Origin: an uncultured Nitrospirota bacterium | GTDB lineage: Bacteria; Nitrospinota; Nitrospinia; CAJXCL01 | Length of the DNA: 64,000 nt | NCBI GenBank assembly: GCA_913051775.1 | Contig: CAJXCL010000001.1 | Coordinates: 21,936-85,935 of the forward strand | Reading direction: 5' to 3' | In this document: piece after piece, positions 5,961-58,672 of the stretch | Layout of the letters: the number at the start of each line of letters is the position of its first letter | Numbering within the stretch: the stretch's first letter is position 1 | Program-made: the position numbers and the translations under genes | Notes under the pieces: generated by a model | What the model saw: only the letters and a program-made list of their open reading frames with translations | What the model was told of the DNA's origin: nothing | The model's database searches: none

Positions 5961-6080
5961 GTGAAAGTCTTTAGCTAGTGCAGCCTTCGCAGCTTGCTGC
6001 GGGGCTAGCGAGCGAACTTAAAATGAAATCATACTCTACACTGAAGATTTCCAGTAGCTTGCTACGGGGAGCTTCAATGT
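5961..6080. repeat. Family-A repeat, composite copy (partial short form fused to a long form; A2)
   Basis: 'gtgaaagtctttagctagtgcagccttcgcagcttgctgcgggg' is followed by 'ctagcgagcgaacttaaaatgaaatcatactctacactgaagatttccagtagcttgctacggggagcttcaatg'. It lies in the 860-bp divergent acs/msrP intergenic region. Confidence 0.7.
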
Positions 6081-6178: not shown

Positions 6179-6232
6179 TGAAAGTGCTTAGCGAGCGCAT
6201 TTTTCACAGCTTTGCTGCTAGGAGCTTCAAAA
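6179..6232. repeat. Family-A repeat, short form (A3)
   Basis: 'gaaagtgcttagcgagcgcatttttcacagctttgctgctaggagcttcaaaag', about 100 nt from A2. Confidence 0.65.
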
Positions 6233-10101: not shown

Positions 10102-10521
10102 AATCGTACTATTTAATTTTCACAACAAATTTATCACAATTATTACAGACTTTTATACTATAATTTTTAGAGGTATAGAATTTATTAATCCGCGGAACAG
10201 AGAAGGGTCGCGAAATAATGAATATTGATTTATTTTTTTTCGTGCTTTTCGTGGTTGATTATTAAATTTGATTGCAGTTTTGTGGCGATATGCAAAGTCA
10301 AAGTGAACTGGTTCAGATATTATCAAGGTTGAAAAGAACCCCATACCCGGCTACCGAAGTATAAAAGAGATATGCGAATTAATAATGACAGATGTACGAG
10401 AGAAAGGACTGGACTGTTTAAGTGAAGAGTGGATAAGAGGAGATCTGTCTGAATTTAGAATCTTTGAATTGGCAGCTACTCTGAATCGCTTTCGAAGCCT
10501 AAAGGTAAAGCAAATAAGTTT

Positions 10522-10572
10522 GGAAGTGTTTAGCGAGCGCATTTCTAGCAGCTTGCTGCGGGGAGCTTCAAT
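10522..10572. repeat. Family-A repeat, short form (A4)
   Basis: 'gaagtgtttagcgagcgcatttctagcagcttgctgcggggagcttcaat'. Intergenic between cobO and the CDP-alcohol phosphatidyltransferase operon. Confidence 0.7.
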
Positions 10573-10617
10573 TTCAGGCAACCTGCTATCACCCAGATTG
10601 CCTTTTACACCAGTTCT

Positions 10618-28842: not shown

Positions 28843-28987
28843 CGAGGCCACCAACCACAATTCGGTAAGGAATGCAAAATTGGATGGTTTCCGAAGAAAA
28901 GCCGCCCAAGGGGTTGAGGCCATGGATGGCCGATAATCAAATGGGCTGCCGCCCAGTCTGCTAATAAAAAGTTGTGCTAAAAAAACA
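28843..28987 (+). repeat. Family-B ~145-nt structured intergenic element (copy B2), 40 nt upstream of tRNA-Gln
   Basis: Aligns with B1 throughout. The hairpin 'tgggctgccgcccag' replaces B1's 'gaagcttccgctcc' (A-T to G-C covariation). Confidence 0.6.
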
Positions 28988-29026
28988 CAATTATACAGAT
29001 TTACAGTACAGAGGTTATCAATTGAG

Positions 29027-29100
29027 TTGGGGGATGGTCTAATGGCAGGACGAGCGGCTCTGACCCGCTTAGTGAAGGTTCGAATCCTTCTCCCCCAGCC
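29027..29100 (+). tRNA. tRNA-Gln (anticodon CUG)
   Basis: 74-nt cloverleaf folded by hand. Acceptor TGGGGGA/TCCCCCA. D-stem GTCT/GGAC. Anticodon stem AGCGG/CCGCT with loop cTCTGac. T-arm GAAGG-TTCGAAT-CCTTC. Discriminator G, encoded CCA. U1-A72 as in bacterial tRNA-Gln. Confidence 0.9.
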
Positions 29101-32307: not shown

Positions 32308-33231
32308 TTAAATAATAAACCTCTTCGCTACTTTTTGACTTTCGTATTCATTGCAATTTTTGCATATTTGCGGAAAATCTTTATCCATATGTCTTTTTCG
32401 GAGCCTTCTCATAGCTAGTCCGTTCCAGATGGAATCCACTGTTTCATTCAGGACGTTCCCGATTTGGAGCTCTCCTTCATAATCCGCGCAGCAGGGAACA
32501 ACTTTTCCGTCCCACAAGACCACCACCTTTCCGTAATCTTTCCCAAAAAGTTCTGGACAGATATCTGTCCTTTGTAATGCAAACTTGTAAAATTGTGTTT
32601 TTTTAGCACAATTTTTTTTAGCAGATTGGACGGTAGCCCCTTTGGTAGTGGCCTCTTGGCTATGCTGTGAACGGATTAATTTAGGTTGAAAACGAACATG
32701 GTCTGCTATGGATTTCCACTTATCATAAAAGGAGTCCATATCTTTTTCTGTTTGTTCTTCAACAACCATTACAATCCCTATTTTAAGGGGGCTGTTTTTC
32801 TCGTTTCTACCTTTTATCAGATTCAAAATATTATTTTCGATTATTTGAAAATCAATACCCCGAATTTTTTGGTATGTGTCCGGGTTTCCATCCACAGAAA
32901 TTCTCAATACACTTAAAGGACTGTTAAGAATTCTGTGGATAGTGTTGTCATCGAGCAATGTTCCGTTGGTATTAAAAACCGTATAACGAATTCCTTTATT
33001 ATGAGCATATTTGATCATATTAAATAAATCTTTGTTCTGCGTTGGTTCACCCCAGTTATGAAGGCAGAGATGCTTCAGCGATTTTCCGCTACCGATTGTT
33101 TTTTGAAAAAGTTCAAAAGACATGAATCCTTTTTTTCTTTTCATTTCATTATTAGTCGGACATATGCGGCAATTCAAATTACATACATTCGTCGTCTCAA
33201 TAGTTAATGATGTGAGTTTATTGATTTTCAT
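32308..33231 (-). CDS. Radical SAM enzyme with C-terminal SPASM-like Cys cluster
   Basis: 307 aa. 'ETTNVCNLNCRIC' CxxxCxxC. C-terminal 'PCCADYEGELQIGNV...CKNCNEY'. Confidence 0.7.
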   Translation of the reverse strand: MKINKLTSLTIETTNVCNLNCRICPTNNEMKRKKGFMSFELFQKTIGSGKSLKHLCLHNWGEPTQNKDLFNMIKYAHNKGIRYTVFNTNGTLLDDNTIHRILNSPLSVLRISVDGNPDTYQKIRGIDFQIIENNILNLIKGRNEKNSPLKIGIVMVVEEQTEKDMDSFYDKWKSIADHVRFQPKLIRSQHSQEATTKGATVQSAKKNCAKKTQFYKFALQRTDICPELFGKDYGKVVVLWDGKVVPCCADYEGELQIGNVLNETVDSIWNGLAMRRLRKRHMDKDFPQICKNCNEYESQKVAKRFII

Positions 33232-36638: not shown

Positions 36639-36680
36639 TTGAAGCTCCCTGCAGCAAAGCTGCGAGGAATTTTCAGTAAA
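36639..36680 (-). repeat. Family-A repeat, short form, reverse orientation (A6)
   Basis: Reverse complement 'ctgaaaattcctcgcagctttgctgcagggagcttcaat' matches the A4/A5 3' half. Confidence 0.6.
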
Positions 36681-49952: not shown

Positions 49953-51850
49953 GCCGGGACAAGAAAATTAAAATAAAAAGTATGTTCATTTTTATCTTTT
50001 TCGTTTTAAGCGGCATTGGAATTATTACGAAACTGTATCATCTGCAAATAAAAGACCACGAACGCTTTGATGAAAGAGCGCTCAATCAATATGAAGGCAA
50101 GGTTTATAAGTATGCGAACAGGGGAAATATCTTTGATCGCAATATGCGGCCGCTTGCCGTTAATGTAAAGGTAAAATCCGTTTATGCCCACCCTGATAAA
50201 ATCCAAAACCACATGAGGACTGCCGGAACGGTATCATCCATCCTCGATTTGCCGAAAATAGAGATCAGAAAGAAATTAAAACAGAAATTACCATTTGTTT
50301 ATATAAAAAGGAAAATTAATCCTGATGAATACAATAAATTAAAAAACAAAAATTTGTCCGGCATTCATTTCTCCACGGAATATAAAAGGTTCTATCCAAA
50401 AATGGAATTAGCCTCAAAGACCATCGGGTTTGCGGGCATGGATAACCAAGGTTTGAGCGGAATTGAATATTATTTTGATGATTATTTGTCCAATGGTGGT
50501 AAATGGGTACGTTTTAAGAAAGACAGACGCGGGCGAAGCGTTGATTTAGTCGGGAATGAAACTGATTACTTACCAGAAGGAAGTAATATCGTTCTTAGCA
50601 TTGACGAAGTTCTCCAATATCATGCCTTGAAAGCAGTTCAGAAAAAAGTAATTGAAACAAAGGCCAAAAGAGGTATTGCCATAGTTATGGAGCCGAACAC
50701 CGGGGAAGTCCTTGCTATGGCTGAGTATCCTTCCTTTAACGCGAATTTATCCAAAAGGTATACTTTGCAGCAGAGGAAAAACAGGGCGGTTTCAGATGCC
50801 TTTGAGCCGGGGTCTACTTTCAAACTTATCCTTGCTTCTGCCGCGTTAGAAGAAAAAATTGCACAACCCAAAGATATCTTTTTTTGTGAAGATGGTGTTT
50901 TTGATATAGGCGGAATTGTCATACATGAGGCCAATAGGAAAAAATACCGCTGGCTGACCCTTACGGAAATTATCACCAAATCAAGCAATATAGGGTCTGT
51001 AAAAATAGCCCGGCATCTGGGTGAAAGCAAGTTTTACGAATATATTAAAAAGTTTGGGTTTGGTGAAATAACAGGTATCAATCTGCCGGGCGAAGCAACC
51101 GGGATAACGAGAGACCTTTCTCAATGGAAAAAAGTTTCTTTAGGTTCTATTTCGATTGGACATGAAATTTCTACCACTCCTCTTCAACTGGTCACAGCCG
51201 TCTCAGCCATCGCAAATGGCGGTTATCTAATGAAGCCGACGATTGTTAAGCAGGCTGTTCATGAAGGCAAGATTATCAAAAGTTTCTCTCCGGAAATAGT
51301 AAGAGAAGTTCTTTCCCAGAAGACGGTTCAAGCCATGAAAGAGATTTTAACCCAGGCTGTTAATTATGGAACAGGTAAAAAAGCATCCATCCCTGGTTAT
51401 TTGGTGGGAGGAAAAACAGGAACAGCGCAGAAAATTGATCCTGATACGAAAAAATATTCTGCCAATAACTATGTAGCCTCTTTTGTCGGATTTGTTCCTG
51501 TTGAAAACCCGAAGCTGACAATCCTCGTGATGATAGATGAACCCCGCGGTATTCACTGGGGCGGCATTGTTGCTGCACCTGTTTTCAGGGAAATTGCTAA
51601 AAAAGCGCTTAGACACTTAAACGTACCTTCAGAAATGAATCGTATTTATACTTTGCCGACCAAAAGCAATAAAAGCAATAAAAGCAATAAAGGCAATAAA
51701 AGCAATCACAGTATATTAAACGCGGGTTTAATGACAAATTTTTTTCACGATAACATTAATTTGAATATTAGAAAAAATGTCGATAAATTTTTAAGCCGGG
51801 TTATTACCGGATTAAAAAATCATTATTGGGAAAAAGATAAAAATGCCTGA
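49949..51850 (+). CDS. ftsI: Peptidoglycan D,D-transpeptidase FtsI (PBP3)
   Basis: 633 aa. SxxK 'STFK', SxN 'SSN', 'KTGT'. C-terminal tail contains (KSN)n encoded by a 9-bp tandem repeat. Confidence 0.85.
   Translation: MSRDKKIKIKSMFIFIFFVLSGIGIITKLYHLQIKDHERFDERALNQYEGKVYKYANRGNIFDRNMRPLAVNVKVKSVYAHPDKIQNHMRTAGTVSSILDLPKIEIRKKLKQKLPFVYIKRKINPDEYNKLKNKNLSGIHFSTEYKRFYPKMELASKTIGFAGMDNQGLSGIEYYFDDYLSNGGKWVRFKKDRRGRSVDLVGNETDYLPEGSNIVLSIDEVLQYHALKAVQKKVIETKAKRGIAIVMEPNTGEVLAMAEYPSFNANLSKRYTLQQRKNRAVSDAFEPGSTFKLILASAALEEKIAQPKDIFFCEDGVFDIGGIVIHEANRKKYRWLTLTEIITKSSNIGSVKIARHLGESKFYEYIKKFGFGEITGINLPGEATGITRDLSQWKKVSLGSISIGHEISTTPLQLVTAVSAIANGGYLMKPTIVKQAVHEGKIIKSFSPEIVREVLSQKTVQAMKEILTQAVNYGTGKKASIPGYLVGGKTGTAQKIDPDTKKYSANNYVASFVGFVPVENPKLTILVMIDEPRGIHWGGIVAAPVFREIAKKALRHLNVPSEMNRIYTLPTKSNKSNKSNKGNKSNHSILNAGLMTNFFHDNINLNIRKNVDKFLSRVITGLKNHYWEKDKNA
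51662..51706 (+). repeat. 9-bp tandem repeat (aaaagcaat)x5 inside the ftsI 3' end, encoding KSNKSNKSNKGNKSN
   Basis: Five in-frame units, one with an A>G change. Read directly from the sequence. Confidence 0.8.
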
Positions 51851-51863
51851 TGACAGATGACTA

Positions 51864-53351
51864 ATGGCTAAACTGCGTCAATTATTAAAGGAAGTAGAAA
51901 TGATAGAAAACGTTGGAAATTTAGATGTAAATATAAGCGGAATAGAATATAACTCACAAAATGTCAATAGGGGTTCAGTTTTTGTCGCCATAAAAGGATT
52001 TCAGCGGAATGGCACTGAGTTTATAGAAGAAGCTGTTGAGAAGGGGGCGGTTGGCGTAGTGTTGGAGGAAGGCACTGCAATGCTAAATAGAATAGGTGCC
52101 AAAACCGGTGTGGTGGTAGTGAAAAACAGCCGTAAAGCCCTGGCTTCTTTGTCAGCGGATTTTTTTGGTAATCCGAGCCGGGAGTTGGATGTTGTAGGAA
52201 TTACAGGAACAAATGGAAAGACCACAACAGCTTATCTTCTGGAATCCATTCTGCAATCAGCCGGCAGGAAAACAGGGATTATAGGAACTATTAATTACCG
52301 TTTTGACGGGAAAGTAAAACCTGCCGTACAAACAACTCCTGAATCGTTAGATCTGCAAAAAATGTTTCGTGAAATGGCGGATGGCAAAGTTGACAACTGT
52401 ATTTTAGAAGTTTCCTCTCATTCATTAACACTTGACCGGGTTTATAAAACCGACTTTTCAGTCGGTATTTTTACAAACCTGACTCAGGATCATCTCGACT
52501 TTCACCTTACGGAAGAAGATTACTTTAAGGCAAAAGAGAAACTGTTTTTGGAATATAGCCTGAAAAAAGCTGTGGTTAATGTTGATGACCCTTATGGAAA
52601 AATGATTTCTAAAAAGACTTCCGCGGAAACGATTACGATAGGCATAATTGAAAAAAGTGACGTACACACTCGGAATATAGAAACATCAATTAACGGGATA
52701 CAGTTTACGGCTAAAACGCCTAAAGGTGAAGTACAGATAGTGTCCGGCCTTATGGGCCGTCATAATGTCTACAATATCTTATGTGCGATAGGAACGGGAC
52801 TTGCCCTAGATATTTCTCTTGAAGAAATTAAAAGAGGTATCGGTAGTCTGCAAAATGTTCCGGGCAGGCTTGAAAAGATAGATGAGGGGCAAAGTTTTTC
52901 AGTGGTAGTGGATTATGCGCACACAGAAGATGCGCTGAAAAATTTGCTGAAAGCGGTAAGGGAACTTACAAAAAAAAGGTTAATTTTGGTCTTTGGTTGT
53001 GGAGGAAACCGCGATAAAGGTAAAAGGCAAAAGATGGGAAAGGTTGCCGGTGAATACAGTGACTACACCATTATAACTTCGGATAACCCTCGAAACGAAG
53101 AACCTGCTTCTATAGCTTCTGAAATAGAGCAGGGAATAAAAAAAGTGGCTGGCAGCGGTAAATATTCCTTAATTCTGGACCGGATGAAGGCAATCAGGCA
53201 AGCCATTAATCTGGCTGGAGAAGAAGATTTTGTAGTGATAGCAGGCAAGGGTCATGAGAATTATCAGCTATTTAAAGACCGTCGAATTCACTTTGATGAC
53301 TTCGAAACTGTAAGAAAACTAATAAAGGAAAAATTATCAATGATAAATTAG
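51864..53351 (+). CDS. murE: UDP-N-acetylmuramoyl-L-alanyl-D-glutamate--2,6-diaminopimelate ligase
   Basis: 495 aa. 'GITGTNGKTT' P-loop. 'DNPR' motif (ITSDNPRNE), indicating meso-DAP specificity. Confidence 0.9.
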   Translation: MAKLRQLLKEVEMIENVGNLDVNISGIEYNSQNVNRGSVFVAIKGFQRNGTEFIEEAVEKGAVGVVLEEGTAMLNRIGAKTGVVVVKNSRKALASLSADFFGNPSRELDVVGITGTNGKTTTAYLLESILQSAGRKTGIIGTINYRFDGKVKPAVQTTPESLDLQKMFREMADGKVDNCILEVSSHSLTLDRVYKTDFSVGIFTNLTQDHLDFHLTEEDYFKAKEKLFLEYSLKKAVVNVDDPYGKMISKKTSAETITIGIIEKSDVHTRNIETSINGIQFTAKTPKGEVQIVSGLMGRHNVYNILCAIGTGLALDISLEEIKRGIGSLQNVPGRLEKIDEGQSFSVVVDYAHTEDALKNLLKAVRELTKKRLILVFGCGGNRDKGKRQKMGKVAGEYSDYTIITSDNPRNEEPASIASEIEQGIKKVAGSGKYSLILDRMKAIRQAINLAGEEDFVVIAGKGHENYQLFKDRRIHFDDFETVRKLIKEKLSMIN

Positions 53352-53572
53352 CACCCCCCTTAATCCCCGCGAGAAGGGATTTGACAGCTTCAATCCCTTC
53401 AGGTAAGGAGGTAAGGGGGGTGTCATTATCTATAAGAAAGAAATGTAAAACAACGATGGATAGGCTTATTTACGCATACTCGTTGTAAAGTTTATAAATG
53501 AGAATGTTACGAGTTGTTAATTGCAAACTGAATACTTTAAAAAATATGAAACCTGAGATCTAAAATTATAAA

Positions 53573-54670
53573 TTGCTTATGCTCTATCATCTTTTATATC
53601 CATTGCGTGAAAGTTTTTCGGTGTTCAATGTCTTTAAATATATTACTTTTCGTTCTGTTTACGCGGGACTTACGGCAATGATAATCAGTATTTTAATGGG
53701 TGTATTTTTTATCAAATTGCTTTCCAAGCACCAAATAGGCGAAACCATTCGTGAAATAGGTCCAGAATCCCACCGTTCTAAAGAAGGCACTCCAACAATG
53801 GGTGGGATTTTAATCCTGGCAGCTACTTTCATTTCTGTTCTGCTCTGGGGAAATTTGCTGAACCAGTATATATGGGTTCTTTTGCTTTCCATGTTGAGTT
53901 TTGGTTTGTTAGGGCTGACAGATGACTATATCAAGGTTATTTTGAAAAAAAAAGATGGGATCAATGTTTCTTTAAAACTTATGATACAGGCTGCTATCGG
54001 ACTTTGCATTGCGCTCTATGTTGTTTTCTTGGATGCAGATAGGTCTGCTTACGCGACATATTTAGAAGTGCCTTTTTTTAAAAATGTAGTGCCAGACCTG
54101 GGGTTGTTTTACATTTTATTTATTGTTCTGGTCATTGTAGGAGCGTCTAATGCCGTGAATCTGACTGATGGATTAGACGGTCTGGCAATAGGACCAATTA
54201 TCGTTGCTACATTTTCTTTTATGATACTGACTTATGTTACCGGCCATATTAAATTTTCAGACTATTTAAACATTCAATACATAGGCAGTGTCGGGGAGTT
54301 ATCCGTTTTTTGTGGAGCTTTAATCGGAGCGGGATTAGGGTTTCTCTGGTTTAATTCCTATCCGGCTCAGATTTTTATGGGGGATGTTGGTTCTTTGGCT
54401 ATGGGAGGTGCGTTAGGGACTCTGGCGGTTTTATCCAAGCACGAGCTTTTGTTGGTTATTGTCGGCGGGTTGTTTGTTATCGAAGCTCTATCAGTCATAT
54501 TGCAGGTATCATATTTCAAAATATCAGGTGGAAAAAGGATATTTAAAATGGCGCCGCTTCATCATCATTTTGAAAAAAAGGGGTGGTCAGAACCGAAAGT
54601 AACTATACGGTTCTGGATTGTTGCCGTCATATTGGCATTGTTAAGCTTAAGCACACTTAAAATCAGGTAA
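53573..54670 (+). CDS. mraY: Phospho-N-acetylmuramoyl-pentapeptide transferase
   Basis: 365 aa, 10-TM. Conserved 'NAVNLTDGLDGLA' and 'FMGDVGSLAMG' MraY motifs. Confidence 0.9.
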   Translation: MLMLYHLLYPLRESFSVFNVFKYITFRSVYAGLTAMIISILMGVFFIKLLSKHQIGETIREIGPESHRSKEGTPTMGGILILAATFISVLLWGNLLNQYIWVLLLSMLSFGLLGLTDDYIKVILKKKDGINVSLKLMIQAAIGLCIALYVVFLDADRSAYATYLEVPFFKNVVPDLGLFYILFIVLVIVGASNAVNLTDGLDGLAIGPIIVATFSFMILTYVTGHIKFSDYLNIQYIGSVGELSVFCGALIGAGLGFLWFNSYPAQIFMGDVGSLAMGGALGTLAVLSKHELLLVIVGGLFVIEALSVILQVSYFKISGGKRIFKMAPLHHHFEKKGWSEPKVTIRFWIVAVILALLSLSTLKIR

Positions 54671-54673
54671 TGA

Positions 54674-56032
54674 ATGAATTTTGAAGATAAGAATGTTCTG
54701 GTGGCTGGTATCGCCAGAACAGGAATAGCAGCGTCTAACCTTCTCGCAAGAAATAAAGCCGGTGTAACAGCGGCAGATGATAAAAAGGAAGAGGATTTGA
54801 AAGAAAACCTGGAAAAACTGGACAAAAGAGTACAAATTCAAACGGGGGGAATTAAAACAGGTGATATTAGTGATTTTGATCTAATAGTTGTAAGTCCAGG
54901 TATTGATATGCGAAATCCTTTATTCAAAAAAGCTGTAGAAAAAGGCATACCCGTCTGGAGCGAGATCGAACTTGCTTCACGGTTTATTAAAAAGCCCGTT
55001 ATTGCCATAACAGGGACTAACGGAAAAACAACTTCTACCAGCATGATTGGCAATATACTGCAAGACAACGGAGAAAAAATTTATGTAGGAGGAAATATCG
55101 GATTTCCTTTGTCGAATATTGCGGATCAGGCGTCGCAATACAGCTATATTATCCTGGAGGTTAGTTCTTTTCAATTGGAATGGGTTTATCAATTTAAACC
55201 GTTTATCAGCGCCATTTTAAATATTACTGAAGATCACCTCGACCGACATCTTGATTTCAATGAGTACGTCTCTTTAAAAAAAAGAATATATCAAAAGCAG
55301 ACGGAAGAAAATTATCTGGTTTTGAACGAAGACGATCCTGCTACTGCAGGCATTGAGCCGGAAAATAAAATTCACAAGCTGTTATTCAGCCGGATTCGTG
55401 AAGTTGAAGATGGCGCGTTCTTAAGAAAAGACAACATTGTAATCCGCCTGCACGGTGAAGAAAAAGTGGTAGGCCCTGTCAGTAAGCTGAAAGTTAAAGG
55501 AATTCACAATATTGAGAATGGTTTAGCTTCCGCCCTGATTGGAGCACTCTGCAAGGTACAAGCGGAAACTGTAATGGATTCTCTATCTCATTTTTGTGGC
55601 ATTGATCATCGTATGGAGTTTATCAGAGAAATAAATGGAGTTAGGTTTATTAATGATTCCAAGGGTACCAATACGGGGGCAACAATGAAATCCATAGAAA
55701 GTTTTAATTGTCCCGTTATTCTAATTGCCGGAGGAAAAGATAAGGGAGGAGATTACGGATCCCTGGGTGAATTAATAAAGAAGAAAGTTAAATTCTCAAT
55801 TTTAATAGGGGAAAGCAAAATAAAAATTCGGTCAGCTTTAAAAGATTACAATAACGTTGAAGATGCAGCGACTTTAGAAGACGCAGTAAAAAAGGCTTCT
55901 TCTAAAGCAATGGCTGGAGATGTAATTATTTTGTCACCAGCCTGCTCTTCTTTTGACATGTTCAGAGACTATGAAGATCGTGGAAATGTTTTTAAAAAAG
56001 CTGTTTTAAGTTTACCGGGAAATAATAATTAG
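54674..56032 (+). CDS. murD: UDP-N-acetylmuramoylalanine--D-glutamate ligase
   Basis: 452 aa. 'ITGTNGKTTSTSM' P-loop. Mur ligase domain order. Confidence 0.9.
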   Translation: MNFEDKNVLVAGIARTGIAASNLLARNKAGVTAADDKKEEDLKENLEKLDKRVQIQTGGIKTGDISDFDLIVVSPGIDMRNPLFKKAVEKGIPVWSEIELASRFIKKPVIAITGTNGKTTSTSMIGNILQDNGEKIYVGGNIGFPLSNIADQASQYSYIILEVSSFQLEWVYQFKPFISAILNITEDHLDRHLDFNEYVSLKKRIYQKQTEENYLVLNEDDPATAGIEPENKIHKLLFSRIREVEDGAFLRKDNIVIRLHGEEKVVGPVSKLKVKGIHNIENGLASALIGALCKVQAETVMDSLSHFCGIDHRMEFIREINGVRFINDSKGTNTGATMKSIESFNCPVILIAGGKDKGGDYGSLGELIKKKVKFSILIGESKIKIRSALKDYNNVEDAATLEDAVKKASSKAMAGDVIILSPACSSFDMFRDYEDRGNVFKKAVLSLPGNNN

Positions 56033-56091
56033 TGTTTAAACGAAATCTCCATTTTCCTATTATTTCGAGCGGAGCGAGAAAATTTAGGTGA

Positions 56092-56175
56092 GTGAAAGTG
56101 TTTAGCGAGCGAATTTAAAAAAAATTATACTCTACACTGAAAATTCTCAGTAGCTTGCTACGGGAAGCTTCAATG
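56092..56175. repeat. Family-A repeat, long form (A5), inserted between murD and ftsW inside the dcw cluster
   Basis: 'gtgaaagtgtttagcgagcgaatttaaaaaaaattatactctacactgaaaattctcagtagcttgctacgggaagcttcaatg'. The track-predicted ftsW start (56155) lies inside it. Confidence 0.7.
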
Positions 56176-56196
56176 TGGCTAAAATTTAATAATAGG

Positions 56197-57357
56197 ATGG
56201 ATATGAGGACTTCAGAAAATCGATACGACCCTGTAATTTTTATATCAGTTATTCTTTTAATCGGTTTAGGGCTAATAATGGTTTACAGTTCCAGCGCCGC
56301 GATTGCATACCAAAAATTTAATGATCCTTACTACTTCTTAAAACGACAGATTTTCCAGGTCATTATCGGCGGGGTTTTAATGGTTTTTTTTATGTGCTTA
56401 GACTATCATACTATTCAAAAGTTTACTTACCCAGCTCTCATTATAACCATGTTTCTTCTTATTCTGGTTTTGTTCCCGCAGTTTGGGAAAAAAGTAGGCG
56501 GGGCTCAGCGCTGGTTACATATAGGAAGCTTCTCTTTTCAACCGTCAGAACTGGCTAAATTTACCTTAATCCTTTATGTGGTTCATTCTCTTGTTAAAAA
56601 ACAGGAGAGGATAGAAGATTTCTTTTACGGGTATTTACCTAACCTGCTTGTCCTAGGCTTTTTCTCTATTTTATTTCTTTTTCAACCTGACCTGGGGACA
56701 ACCGTGGTTTTAATTGCAGTAGTTTTTATTCTTTTTTTTATTGCCGGCATAAAATTCAATTATCTCTTTTATTCAGTTGTGATGCTTTTGCCGGCCATCT
56801 GCTGGGTTATTTTAAGTTCAGAATATCAGAAGAACAGAATCATTTCATTTTTAGATCCTGAAAAGGACCCCCTTGGAAAAGGGTATCAGATTATTCAATC
56901 TTTTATGGCCTTTAGCCGCGGGAATGCATTCGGTATTGGGCTGGGTGAAGGCAGGCAAAAGTTGTTCTTTCTTCCTGAACCTCATACTGACTTTATTTTT
57001 TCCATCATTGGTGAGGAGTTGGGATTTGCCGGAACAGTTATTGTTGTCATGCTGTTTTTAGCCATTATTTGGCGGGGAATCCAGACTGCGATAAAATCTT
57101 CGGATCTATATGGAAAATTTTTGTCCTTGGGATTAACTTCTCTGATTGGTGTTCAGGCCATGGTAAACCTGGCTGTGGCAGTGGGGCTTCTCCCTACTAA
57201 AGGACTAACTTTGCCATTTGTCAGTATGGGAGGCTCCTCCCTGGTGGTTTCGATGATCTGCGCTGGAGTTTTATTGAATATATCTAAAAAGATAGGGGTC
57301 AGAAATCAGTCCTCAGTAGCGAGGGTGAGAAGAGTTGTACAGACACAAAGAGCGTAA
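56197..57357 (+). CDS. ftsW: Peptidoglycan glycosyltransferase / lipid II flippase FtsW (SEDS family)
   Basis: SEDS 10-TM protein between murD and murG. Start moved to the ATG at 56197 (MDMRTSENRY...) to exclude the repeat. Confidence 0.85.
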   Translation: MDMRTSENRYDPVIFISVILLIGLGLIMVYSSSAAIAYQKFNDPYYFLKRQIFQVIIGGVLMVFFMCLDYHTIQKFTYPALIITMFLLILVLFPQFGKKVGGAQRWLHIGSFSFQPSELAKFTLILYVVHSLVKKQERIEDFFYGYLPNLLVLGFFSILFLFQPDLGTTVVLIAVVFILFFIAGIKFNYLFYSVVMLLPAICWVILSSEYQKNRIISFLDPEKDPLGKGYQIIQSFMAFSRGNAFGIGLGEGRQKLFFLPEPHTDFIFSIIGEELGFAGTVIVVMLFLAIIWRGIQTAIKSSDLYGKFLSLGLTSLIGVQAMVNLAVAVGLLPTKGLTLPFVSMGGSSLVVSMICAGVLLNISKKIGVRNQSSVARVRRVVQTQRA

Positions 57358-58496: not shown

Positions 58497-58623
58497 CATG
58501 TTATGTCTCTGTACTCAAATTTAAAAAATTGTGTTTTTTTGGCACAATTTATGTTAGTAGACCGGGCGGCAGCTCATTTGGTTGCGCTTCCCTGGCTGTT
58601 CTGTGACAGCAATTATTTGTCAT

Positions 58624-58646
58624 CCTGAGCTTGTCGAAGGGATAGC
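58624..58646. repeat. Short motif 'tcYtgagcttgtcRaaggg..a' (copy 2), 30 nt upstream of murC
   Basis: See 28752-28775. Confidence 0.4.
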
Positions 58647-58672
58647 GTTTTTGTGGTGAGTCTATATCTAAA

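Follow-up and report, generated by a model that had tools for sequence, protein, structure and literature searches.

A modular interspersed repeat between murD and ftsW in a marine Nitrospinota genome

The BOX elements of Streptococcus pneumoniae and the Correia elements of Neisseria are short modular or structured repeats that lie in operons and 5′ untranslated regions and can alter the expression of neighbouring genes, the enzyme that mobilises them being unknown or acting in trans. Correia elements have 26-nucleotide (nt) terminal inverted repeats and a TA duplication, and BOX is confined to one genus. IS608, the ends of which serve as the model for the non-autonomous IS200/IS605-derived palindrome-associated transposable elements (PATEs), is cleaved 3′ of a TTAC tetranucleotide, 19 nt 5′ of the foot of its left hairpin, and at TCAA, 10 nt 3′ of the foot of its right hairpin, and each of these sites is read by 4 nt lying 5′ of the corresponding hairpin foot (PMC3201880). 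Here, we compare with such elements a repeat family, family A, one copy of which lies between the murD and ftsW genes in the division and cell wall (dcw) cluster of a marine Nitrospinota genome. The copy was noticed in a 64-kb stretch of DNA (contig CAJXCL010000001.1, positions 21,936 to 85,935, forward strand), to which we refer as the window; the best matches to its FtsW are unnamed metagenome proteins, and those with names come from Nitrospinae/Nitrospinales metagenome-assembled genomes (MAGs).

The murD–ftsW copy and the start of ftsW

The spacer between murD and ftsW is 170 nt long and contains an 81-nt element at 56093-56173 (+ strand), the boundaries of which, TGAA...GCTTCAA, are those seen family-wide. 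All four parts of the family, i.e., the TGAA[AC] head, the AGCGAGCG module, the CTTG-loop hairpin and the AGCTTCAA tail, are present there in order. A hidden Markov model (HMM) made only from composite copies of other phyla, with no window sequence in it, matched 56101-56173 with E=3.5e-10, and both the architecture of the copy and its length of about 80 nt match those of long forms of other phyla, such as L010, L021 and L076. In the window itself, the copy is 87% identical to 6018-6080 over 63 nt, and there are four matches to the tail motif GCTTGCTRCGGGRAGCTTCAAT and five to the head motif TGAAAGTGTTTAGCGAGCG, against 0.00 expected from shuffles in each case. Clearly, the element is a true copy, in the long form and with some decay, of a modular interspersed repeat. 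A reading made from the letters of the window only (the sequence-only reading) had reported a family-A repeat here, at 56092-56175; the repeat is present as described, beyond chance, and its limits were right to within 2 nt.

The decay is seen in the hairpin. The copy consists, on the + strand, of the head TGAAAGTGTT (56093-56102), the AGCGAGCG module (56103-56111), the middle module (56112-56145), the degenerate hairpin CTCAGTAG-CTTG-CTACGGGA (56146-56165) and the tail AGCTTCAA (56166-56173). The hairpin foot, CTCAGTAG/CTACGGGA, has one mismatch and one wobble, compared with the CCCC/GGGG foot of the family, and the predicted fold of the copy (-15.1 kcal/mol) has a z of only -0.85. For the spacer as a whole, the fold is no stronger than that of shuffled sequence (z -0.06). 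A scan of 55500-56700 found no terminator-like site, and promoter-like sites in the region did not exceed the shuffles (2 versus 3.6 expected). Thus, the proposal that the repeat can affect ftsW translation or mRNA stability found no support. In the head, AGTGT (56097-56101) is complementary to ACACT (56134-56138). An alternative conformation is also possible: the AGCGAGC of the module is complementary, with one G·U, to GCTTGCT, which forms the loop and the 3′ arm of the hairpin of the same copy (56103-56110 versus 56153-56160), a feature present family-wide, and RNAfold predicted this pairing for the murD–ftsW copy.

Several observations place the copy outside the ftsW coding sequence. Close FtsW homologues are 383 or 384 amino acids (aa) long, which matches a start at ATG 56203. 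In the relatives with 91% identical FtsW the position equivalent to 56197 reads ATA, and their ATG is preceded, at a distance of 7 codons, by an in-frame TAG; in-frame stops occur just upstream of the ftsW start in other relatives, too. The Shine-Dalgarno sequence of ftsW, AGGA (56194-56197), lies 5 nt before ATG 56203, and would itself overlap a start at 56197. Moreover, DNA conservation with the relatives begins at this Shine-Dalgarno sequence and ATG 56203, and the protein, encoded directly after murD as expected of the dcw FtsW, has an N-terminus conserved from that codon. Clearly, ftsW begins at ATG 56203 and has its own AGGA. The lengths of homologues, the upstream in-frame stops and the position of AGGA therefore support the view that the repeat is non-coding and precedes the true start of the gene. 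Fixing the start matters, as an open reading frame (ORF) caller would otherwise begin ftsW within the repeat: the start in the ORF track, TTG 56155, indeed sits there, as had been pointed out before. The sequence-only reading was also correct in placing the repeat upstream of the conserved FtsW start, but this start is not ATG 56197, which it had chosen. Alignment of homologues from 56155, which it had named as contrary to its view, was not seen; close homologues start at the equivalent of 56203.

The history of the junction could be followed in relatives, which were ranked by the identity of their FtsW to that of the window and labelled by locus (L001, L002, etc.). In L004 (99%), both the 170-nt spacer and the copy within it are as in the window. 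In L001-L003 (91%), only the 3′ part of the copy is kept: the hairpin CGCAGCTCTGCTGCG, with the end of the middle module before it and a degenerate tail after it. L137 (90%) has an element-free spacer of 103 nt, which is homologous to the window spacer at both ends and carries 19 unrelated nt in place of the AG, the element and the TGTGGC of the window. The 129-nt spacer of L006 (79%) contains a different hairpin element, GCACCCCCC...GGGGGGTGC. Finally, murD and ftsW overlap by 4 nt (TTGA) in L005 (88%), L138 (87%), L136 (77%) and L008 (71%), and an overlap of the two genes is also present in L132 (57%). With at least five states among relatives, the murD–ftsW junction is a hotspot of small-repeat turnover. 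These states show that the overlap is ancestral in the clade and that the insertion is lineage-specific. The sequence-only reading had suggested an alignment with the dcw clusters of relatives to see whether this is so; four of them show the TTGA overlap, and none of the relatives shared the sequence as an unrelated conserved untranslated region.

A spacer, in which the copy sits, now parts murD and ftsW in one Nitrospinota subclade, and murD–ftsW translational coupling has been lost in it. The consequence that could be shown is structural: with the coupling through TTGA lost, ftsW relies on a Shine-Dalgarno sequence of its own. The contigs of L002 and L003, which are independent metagenome contigs, start 59 and 42 nt before ftsW, either inside the repeat remnant or directly ahead of it, which fits assembly breaks at a repeat or at a strain-variable site. 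The repeat may explain the breaks of metagenome contigs of relatives at the murD–ftsW junction.

The remainder of the spacer consists of two parts. The upstream one (56033-56092, + strand) is older; the initial ~61 nt of the L137 spacer, which lacks the element, align with it, and its only BLAST match was to the 99% relative L004. Within it lies a partial module, GAGCGGAGCGAG (56067-56078), with AAAATTTA after it, so that this part may be the decayed remains of an earlier copy. The partial iteration gagcggagcgag that had been reported in front of the element is present at 56067-56078, but its resemblance to the AGCGAGCG module, with AAAATTTA, is weak and exceeds chance only slightly (16 of 300 shuffles score as well). 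The downstream part (56174-56202, + strand) carries the Shine-Dalgarno AGGA and is common to L137; GAGGA/AGGA with the ATG at the end of the spacer is also found in L001. A perfect 9-bp inverted repeat brackets the element: its 5′ arm CCTATTATT (56056-56064, + strand) pairs in the minimum free energy (MFE) and centroid folds with the 3′ arm AATAATAGG (56188-56196, + strand), which overlaps the Shine-Dalgarno sequence of ftsW. The only two substitutions of L004 in the first 60 nt of the spacer fall in the 5′ arm, and both still pair, as G·U. This stem may be due to chance.

A modular, structured family in several phyla

Family A is not a local repeat, but a modular element that recurs in several phyla with hardly a letter changed. 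Its 21-nt tail GCTTGCTRCGGGRAGCTTCAA is present without a change in at least 117 loci of species-representative genomes. Among the sources are MAGs labelled as Desulfobacterales, Syntrophales, Desulfobulbaceae and other Thermodesulfobacteriota, members of Nitrospirota (the complete chromosome of Candidatus Manganitrophus GAC4, 4.2 Mb long, matches at four separate positions), the Nitrospinota MAG L061, which has the same head as the window copies, and one MAG labelled as Fibrobacteres. The loci include contigs of 93 to 372 kb. Several MAGs have 8-9 matching loci each, and many 8-kb loci contain two to seven copies. Exact matches in viral contigs numbered zero, and those in plasmids (PLSDB) were limited to three Ca. 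Manganitrophus plasmids. Within Nitrospinota, the family is confined to the close relatives of the window, as about 74 kb sampled from more distant ones (L005, L006, L008, L128-L132, L134 and L136) contained no copy, versus six per 64 kb in the window.

The conserved parts of the family are 5′-TGAAC, AGCGAGCG, a G+C-rich hairpin with the CTTG loop, and AGCTTCAA-3′. They are combined in three forms. The short form (~51 nt) reads TGAAC-N5-AGCGAGCG-CATT-CCCCGCAG-CTTG-CTGCGGGG-AGCTTCAA. The composite form (~115 nt) consists of the short form through GGGG, followed by TTAGCGAGCGAAT, a lineage-specific middle module of ~35 nt, GATT, a hairpin and AGCTTCAA. In the long form (~80 nt), the head and AGCGAGCG are joined straight to the middle module, the version of which differs lineage by lineage. 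Orthologous sites differ in architecture (window 5962 compared with L126; L026 compared with L021). Therefore, modules are gained or lost in place, and the short, long and composite forms interconvert at fixed loci.

The structure of the family was assessed on 46 distinct composite copies, with helix partners slid by 1-3 columns as a control. In the proposed helices, 90.8% of cells were paired (41-58% in slid controls), and the covariation score was 0.183 (0.03-0.07 in slid controls); one covarying pair, for instance, was AU in 18 copies, UA in 14, UG in 9, GU in 2, and CG and GC in one each. The stems contained 76 G·T wobbles but only 7 A·C mismatches. The structural constraint is therefore strand-specific: it bears on one strand in single-stranded form, be it RNA or DNA, rather than on a palindrome in duplex. 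Additionally, the head and the 3′ end of the middle module pair with each other in at least five matched types of sequence (ACCG/CGGT, ACTG/CAGT, ACAT/ATGT, AAATG/CATTT and ATCC/GGAT, and AGTGT/ACACT in the window), although a register-free test of this pairing gave a modest difference, 4.1 contiguous pairs within a copy versus 3.1 across copies. Canonical copies fold at z of about -3.6 to -3.7.

Scans of the window and eight loci with canonical copies against Rfam 15 at gathering scores found tRNAs only, permissive scans gave no match with E below about 1, and membership of a known RNA family was rejected on these grounds. A search of the available papers by sequence string and keyword found none with the motifs and no description of the family. 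An element of 50-120 nt, with covarying helices, no Rfam entry and no linked transposase in the fetched loci, has a stretch of 21 nt that is identical between MAGs carrying the labels of three phyla or more; the family is unusually widespread and appears to be undescribed. It may represent a new single-strand element mobilised in trans or a new class of RNA, and in practice it hampers the assembly, binning and gene calling of MAGs from sediment and marine sources.

The six copies in the window are all intergenic and lie in both orientations relative to neighbouring genes. Apart from the murD–ftsW copy, they comprise a degenerate long form between convergent genes (1355-1435, + strand; head-motif match and HMM), a composite with two direct hairpins (5962-6077, + strand; HMM E=1.2e-20), two short forms, at 6179-6230 (+ strand; short-form HMM E=1.4e-8) and 10521-10571 (+ strand, antisense to both neighbours; short-form HMM E=2.9e-14), and a 3′-half copy with linker, hairpin and tail at 36639-36680 (- strand, antisense to its neighbours; tail motif and HMM). 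The intergenic region that holds copy 10521 is longer by ~1.5-2.4 kb in two relatives with 87-89% identity, L126 (11270-13692 and 13904-15380) and L127 (3466-4936). To judge by the sequence, the 516-nt non-coding stretch of the window at 10102-10617 looks like a deletion product.

Selfish element or structured RNA as possible explanations

Copies of the family have sharp boundaries, (T)TGAAC...GCTTCAA(T), with an invariant TGAA at the left border and an enrichment of T just outside the ends (57% at -1, 77% at +1). They are almost exclusively intergenic (12 of 131 lie within crude ORF calls) and occur in both orientations. The sharp boundaries and the intergenic location in both orientations, together with patchy density and lineage-specific middle modules, support a mobile element. 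Of the explanations considered, we rank first, and hold to be somewhat probable, a selfish, non-autonomous element that would spread through a single-stranded intermediate. An enzyme of the HUH/Y1 type would probably recognise it in trans, as for repetitive extragenic palindrome (REP) elements and IS200/IS605 derivatives, and would cleave next to TGAA at the left and after TCAA at the right. The local copy would then be a passenger within the polycistronic dcw transcript, which would have abolished the translational coupling of murD and ftsW without stopping read-through, in keeping with its weak fold and with the lack of a terminator-like site in 55500-56700, and would at most mildly tune ftsW translation or mRNA decay. 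It is probably an ordinary, near-neutral passenger.

In its geometry, the family is closest to the ends of IS200/IS605 elements, of which IS608 is the model. In composites, the two hairpins are direct and not inverted. TGAA lies 19 nt 5′ of the foot of the first hairpin, the element ends with TCAA, 8 nt 3′ of the foot of the second one, and the 4 nt immediately 5′ of the two feet are CATT and GATT. Several points weigh against a trans-mobilised element of this kind. The reading of these positions as guides and cleavage sites draws on their invariance and on the analogy to IS608, and not on covariation; it is an analogy, not a proof. CGAAG, on the 5′ side of the hairpin, is a further pairing partner of the tail AGCTTCAA, in an ordinary helix that competes with an IS608-like arrangement. 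Neither an autonomous copy nor a Y1/HUH gene bounded by family ends was found in ~0.9 Mb around 117 copies. No clean empty site that would fix the insertion point or a target duplication was recovered among window sites, by BLAST of flanks or in L137. The cross-phylum breadth depends on the taxonomy labels of MAGs as given, that of Fibrobacteres especially. Finally, the bias towards the sense orientation and the median position 39 nt past a stop codon, described below, suit a role at the RNA level equally well.

The search for a parent and for empty sites covered the fetched loci. No left-end-only or right-end-only HMM matches 0.3-3 kb apart were found in them. ORFs between neighbouring copies, including oppositely oriented ones, are ordinary genes. 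The sole candidate in a scan for HUH and Y motifs was an ORF of L071 (1240-2440), which encodes a 336-aa protein with Y1_Tnp and DnaA_C-like parts; it was rejected as a parent, since it has flanking inverted repeats of its own (TATAGGGGACGTTCG / CGAACGTCCCGTATA) and belongs to a separate HUH-type element unrelated to family A. In the comparison with L126 and L127 (87-89%), each of the window sites 10521, 5962 and 6179 was filled by a variant or had other sequence in its place, and the all-against-all BLAST of flanks among loci gave filled/filled pairs only.

A broader possibility, to which we give tentative credit, is that the family represents an undescribed single-strand-structured class, the TGAAC, AGCGAGCG, CTTG-loop hairpin and AGCTTCAA parts of which would be read by one conserved protein. 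It would be either a new HUH-type system, with cleavage at TGAA and TCAA and horizontal transfer among Thermodesulfobacteriota, Nitrospirota, Nitrospinota and others, or a new class of multi-copy non-coding RNA.

The next explanation, ranked second to the trans-mobilised element among those weighed for the family as a whole, is a structured cis-acting RNA element. It could, for instance, regulate the downstream gene or, as REP does in E. coli mRNAs, form a hairpin that protects or processes 3′ ends. Selection on the RNA would maintain its structure, which here would stabilise the murD-proximal transcript or tune ftsW translation. Between co-directional genes, 44 copies are in the sense orientation and 19 antisense, and the median position is 39 nt after the stop codon of the upstream same-strand gene, as would be expected of such an element. 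The strand-specific excess of wobbles, the covarying helices, the strong folds of canonical copies and, at the murD–ftsW junction, the 9-bp stem that covers the ftsW Shine-Dalgarno sequence in both folds also speak for it. As to a bias by replication strand, 71 of 112 copies lie on the locally G-rich strand, a preference that is inseparable from the bias of 44 to 19. However, about 30% of the copies between co-directional genes are antisense, and other copies lie between convergent or divergent genes. The family 3′ flank is enriched in T only at +1 and +2, so that there is no U-tract, and with no terminator-like site in 55500-56700 an intrinsic terminator was rejected. Additionally, Rfam gave no match, the murD–ftsW copy is degenerate and folds no better than shuffles, and a patchy, high-copy, subclade-restricted distribution is typical of selfish spread. 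We consider an RNA-level role unlikely.

Still less credible is a classical miniature inverted-repeat transposable element (MITE), recognised at terminal inverted repeats by a DDE transposase that makes a target-site duplication. The copies are small, intergenic and numerous, their ends, TGAA...TTCA, form an inverted repeat, and T is enriched outside both of them. This inverted repeat is only 4-5 nt long, versus a minimum of ~10 bp for the class; the internal hairpins are direct, the wobble asymmetry indicates a constraint on a single strand and not on a double one, no duplication longer than the single T enriched on each side is visible (>1 nt), and no parent insertion sequence was found in the fetched loci. 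The long terminal inverted repeats and the target-site duplication of a classical MITE are thus missing.

A very improbable explanation is that the murD–ftsW copy bears an outward promoter that drives ftsW independently of the upstream dcw promoters. A -10-like TATACT (56126-56131), with TTTAGC 19 nt upstream, could serve as one, and all three copies of the window with a middle module have kept TATACT or CATACT. The consensus scan did not call this site, its spacing is 19 nt, promoter-like sites were below the shuffle expectation, and the motif is specific to the middle module of the window lineage and absent from canonical copies; the promoter reading was therefore rejected. The last one, that the repeat is coding and FtsW begins inside it at TTG 56155 (or ATG 56173), has an open frame from 56155 in its favour, but we rejected it as next to impossible in view of the uniform length and start of close homologues, the in-frame stops just upstream of the starts of relatives, DNA conservation that begins only at the Shine-Dalgarno sequence and ATG, and a ftsW start that overlaps the murD stop in four relatives.

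The dcw surroundings and the comparison with described elements

The dcw cluster of the window is on the + strand and, by NCBIfam, comprises, in this order, mraZ, rsmH, a small unassigned ORF, ftsI, murE, mraY, murD, ftsW, murG and murC. The murD gene (54674-56032, + strand; TIGR01087, E 1.1e-133) encodes a protein ending in ...PGNNN* and has a TAG stop; ftsW (56203-57357, + strand; TIGR02614, E 7e-126) encodes 384 aa from ATG 56203. Three ORFs after murC occupy the positions expected of murB, ftsQ and ftsA, as indicated by ORF positions and by Pfam labels in relatives. Contrary to the sequence-only reading, which had counted three wide junctions, the ORF list has five gaps of more than 80 nt: murE/mraY (221 nt), murD/ftsW (170 nt) and murG/murC (176 nt), to which rsmH/ftsL (88 nt) and ftsQ/ftsA (166 nt) are added. 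Its statement that repeat insertion inside a dcw cluster is uncommon also fails in this clade, as repeats of other kinds occur in two further gaps of the window, murE/mraY and murG/murC, and in that between murD and ftsW in L006 (79%).

In the murE/mraY gap, a hairpin element, GCACCCCCCTTA...TAAGGGGGGTG, lies at 53352-53425; it is of the same kind as that in the murD/ftsW gap of L006 (L006 7890-7940), and includes a string, GACAGCTTCAAT, that is similar to the tail of family A. The murG/murC gap (58497-58672) contains a third repeat family, with the hairpin TTGTGTTTTTTTGGCACAA, further copies of which (28938-29014 and 32569-32682) adjoin the tRNA at 29028 and are found at 32580. The same gap has a TTTGTCATCCTGAGCTTGTCGAAGGGA motif, similar to the GTCATTCTGAGCAAAGCGAAGAATCTC motif of L126. 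No murF intervenes between murE and mraY in the window (51864-54670), L004, L006 and L008; in more distant Nitrospinota, a Mur ligase of 466-473 aa abuts mraY (L132 1-1138; L134 1-1115). The 3′ end of the ftsI ORF (51662-51711) contains a tandem 9-nt repeat, AAAAGCAAT, in about five units.

Like BOX and Correia elements, family A consists of short modular or structured repeats that can be found inside operons and 5′ untranslated regions, but the sequences are unrelated. REP elements and bacterial interspersed mosaic elements (BIMEs), with their REP-associated tyrosine transposases (RAYTs), also resemble it: they too are high-copy extragenic hairpins often just downstream of genes. A short conserved motif precedes their stem, their modules are combined in mosaics, an HUH enzyme is presumed to act on them in trans, and they may stabilise upstream mRNA. 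In contrast to the family, the hairpins of which are direct and showed no RAYT link, REPs are typically inverted doublets that flank a RAYT gene. The modules being direct, and the ORFs between oppositely oriented copies being ordinary genes, a REP/RAYT doublet was rejected. Moreover, REP families are specific to a species or genus, whereas the present one keeps 21 of 21 nt across phyla.

In relation to the IS200/IS605 elements, the family differs in that no parent bearing tnpA/tnpB and family ends was found in ~0.9 Mb around the copies, that single-hairpin short forms are common, and that the AGCGAGCG module and the head-to-middle helix have no counterpart in IS608. Despite that, like the IS200/IS605 PATEs, it has sub-terminal direct hairpins on one strand, no long terminal inverted repeats and a strand-specific structural constraint. 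As in IS608, the left border bears a fixed tetranucleotide (TGAA here, TTAC in IS608) at a distance of 19 nt from the foot of the first hairpin, on its 5′ side; TCAA forms the right end, a few nt beyond the second hairpin; and conserved tetranucleotides are found 5′ of the hairpin feet.

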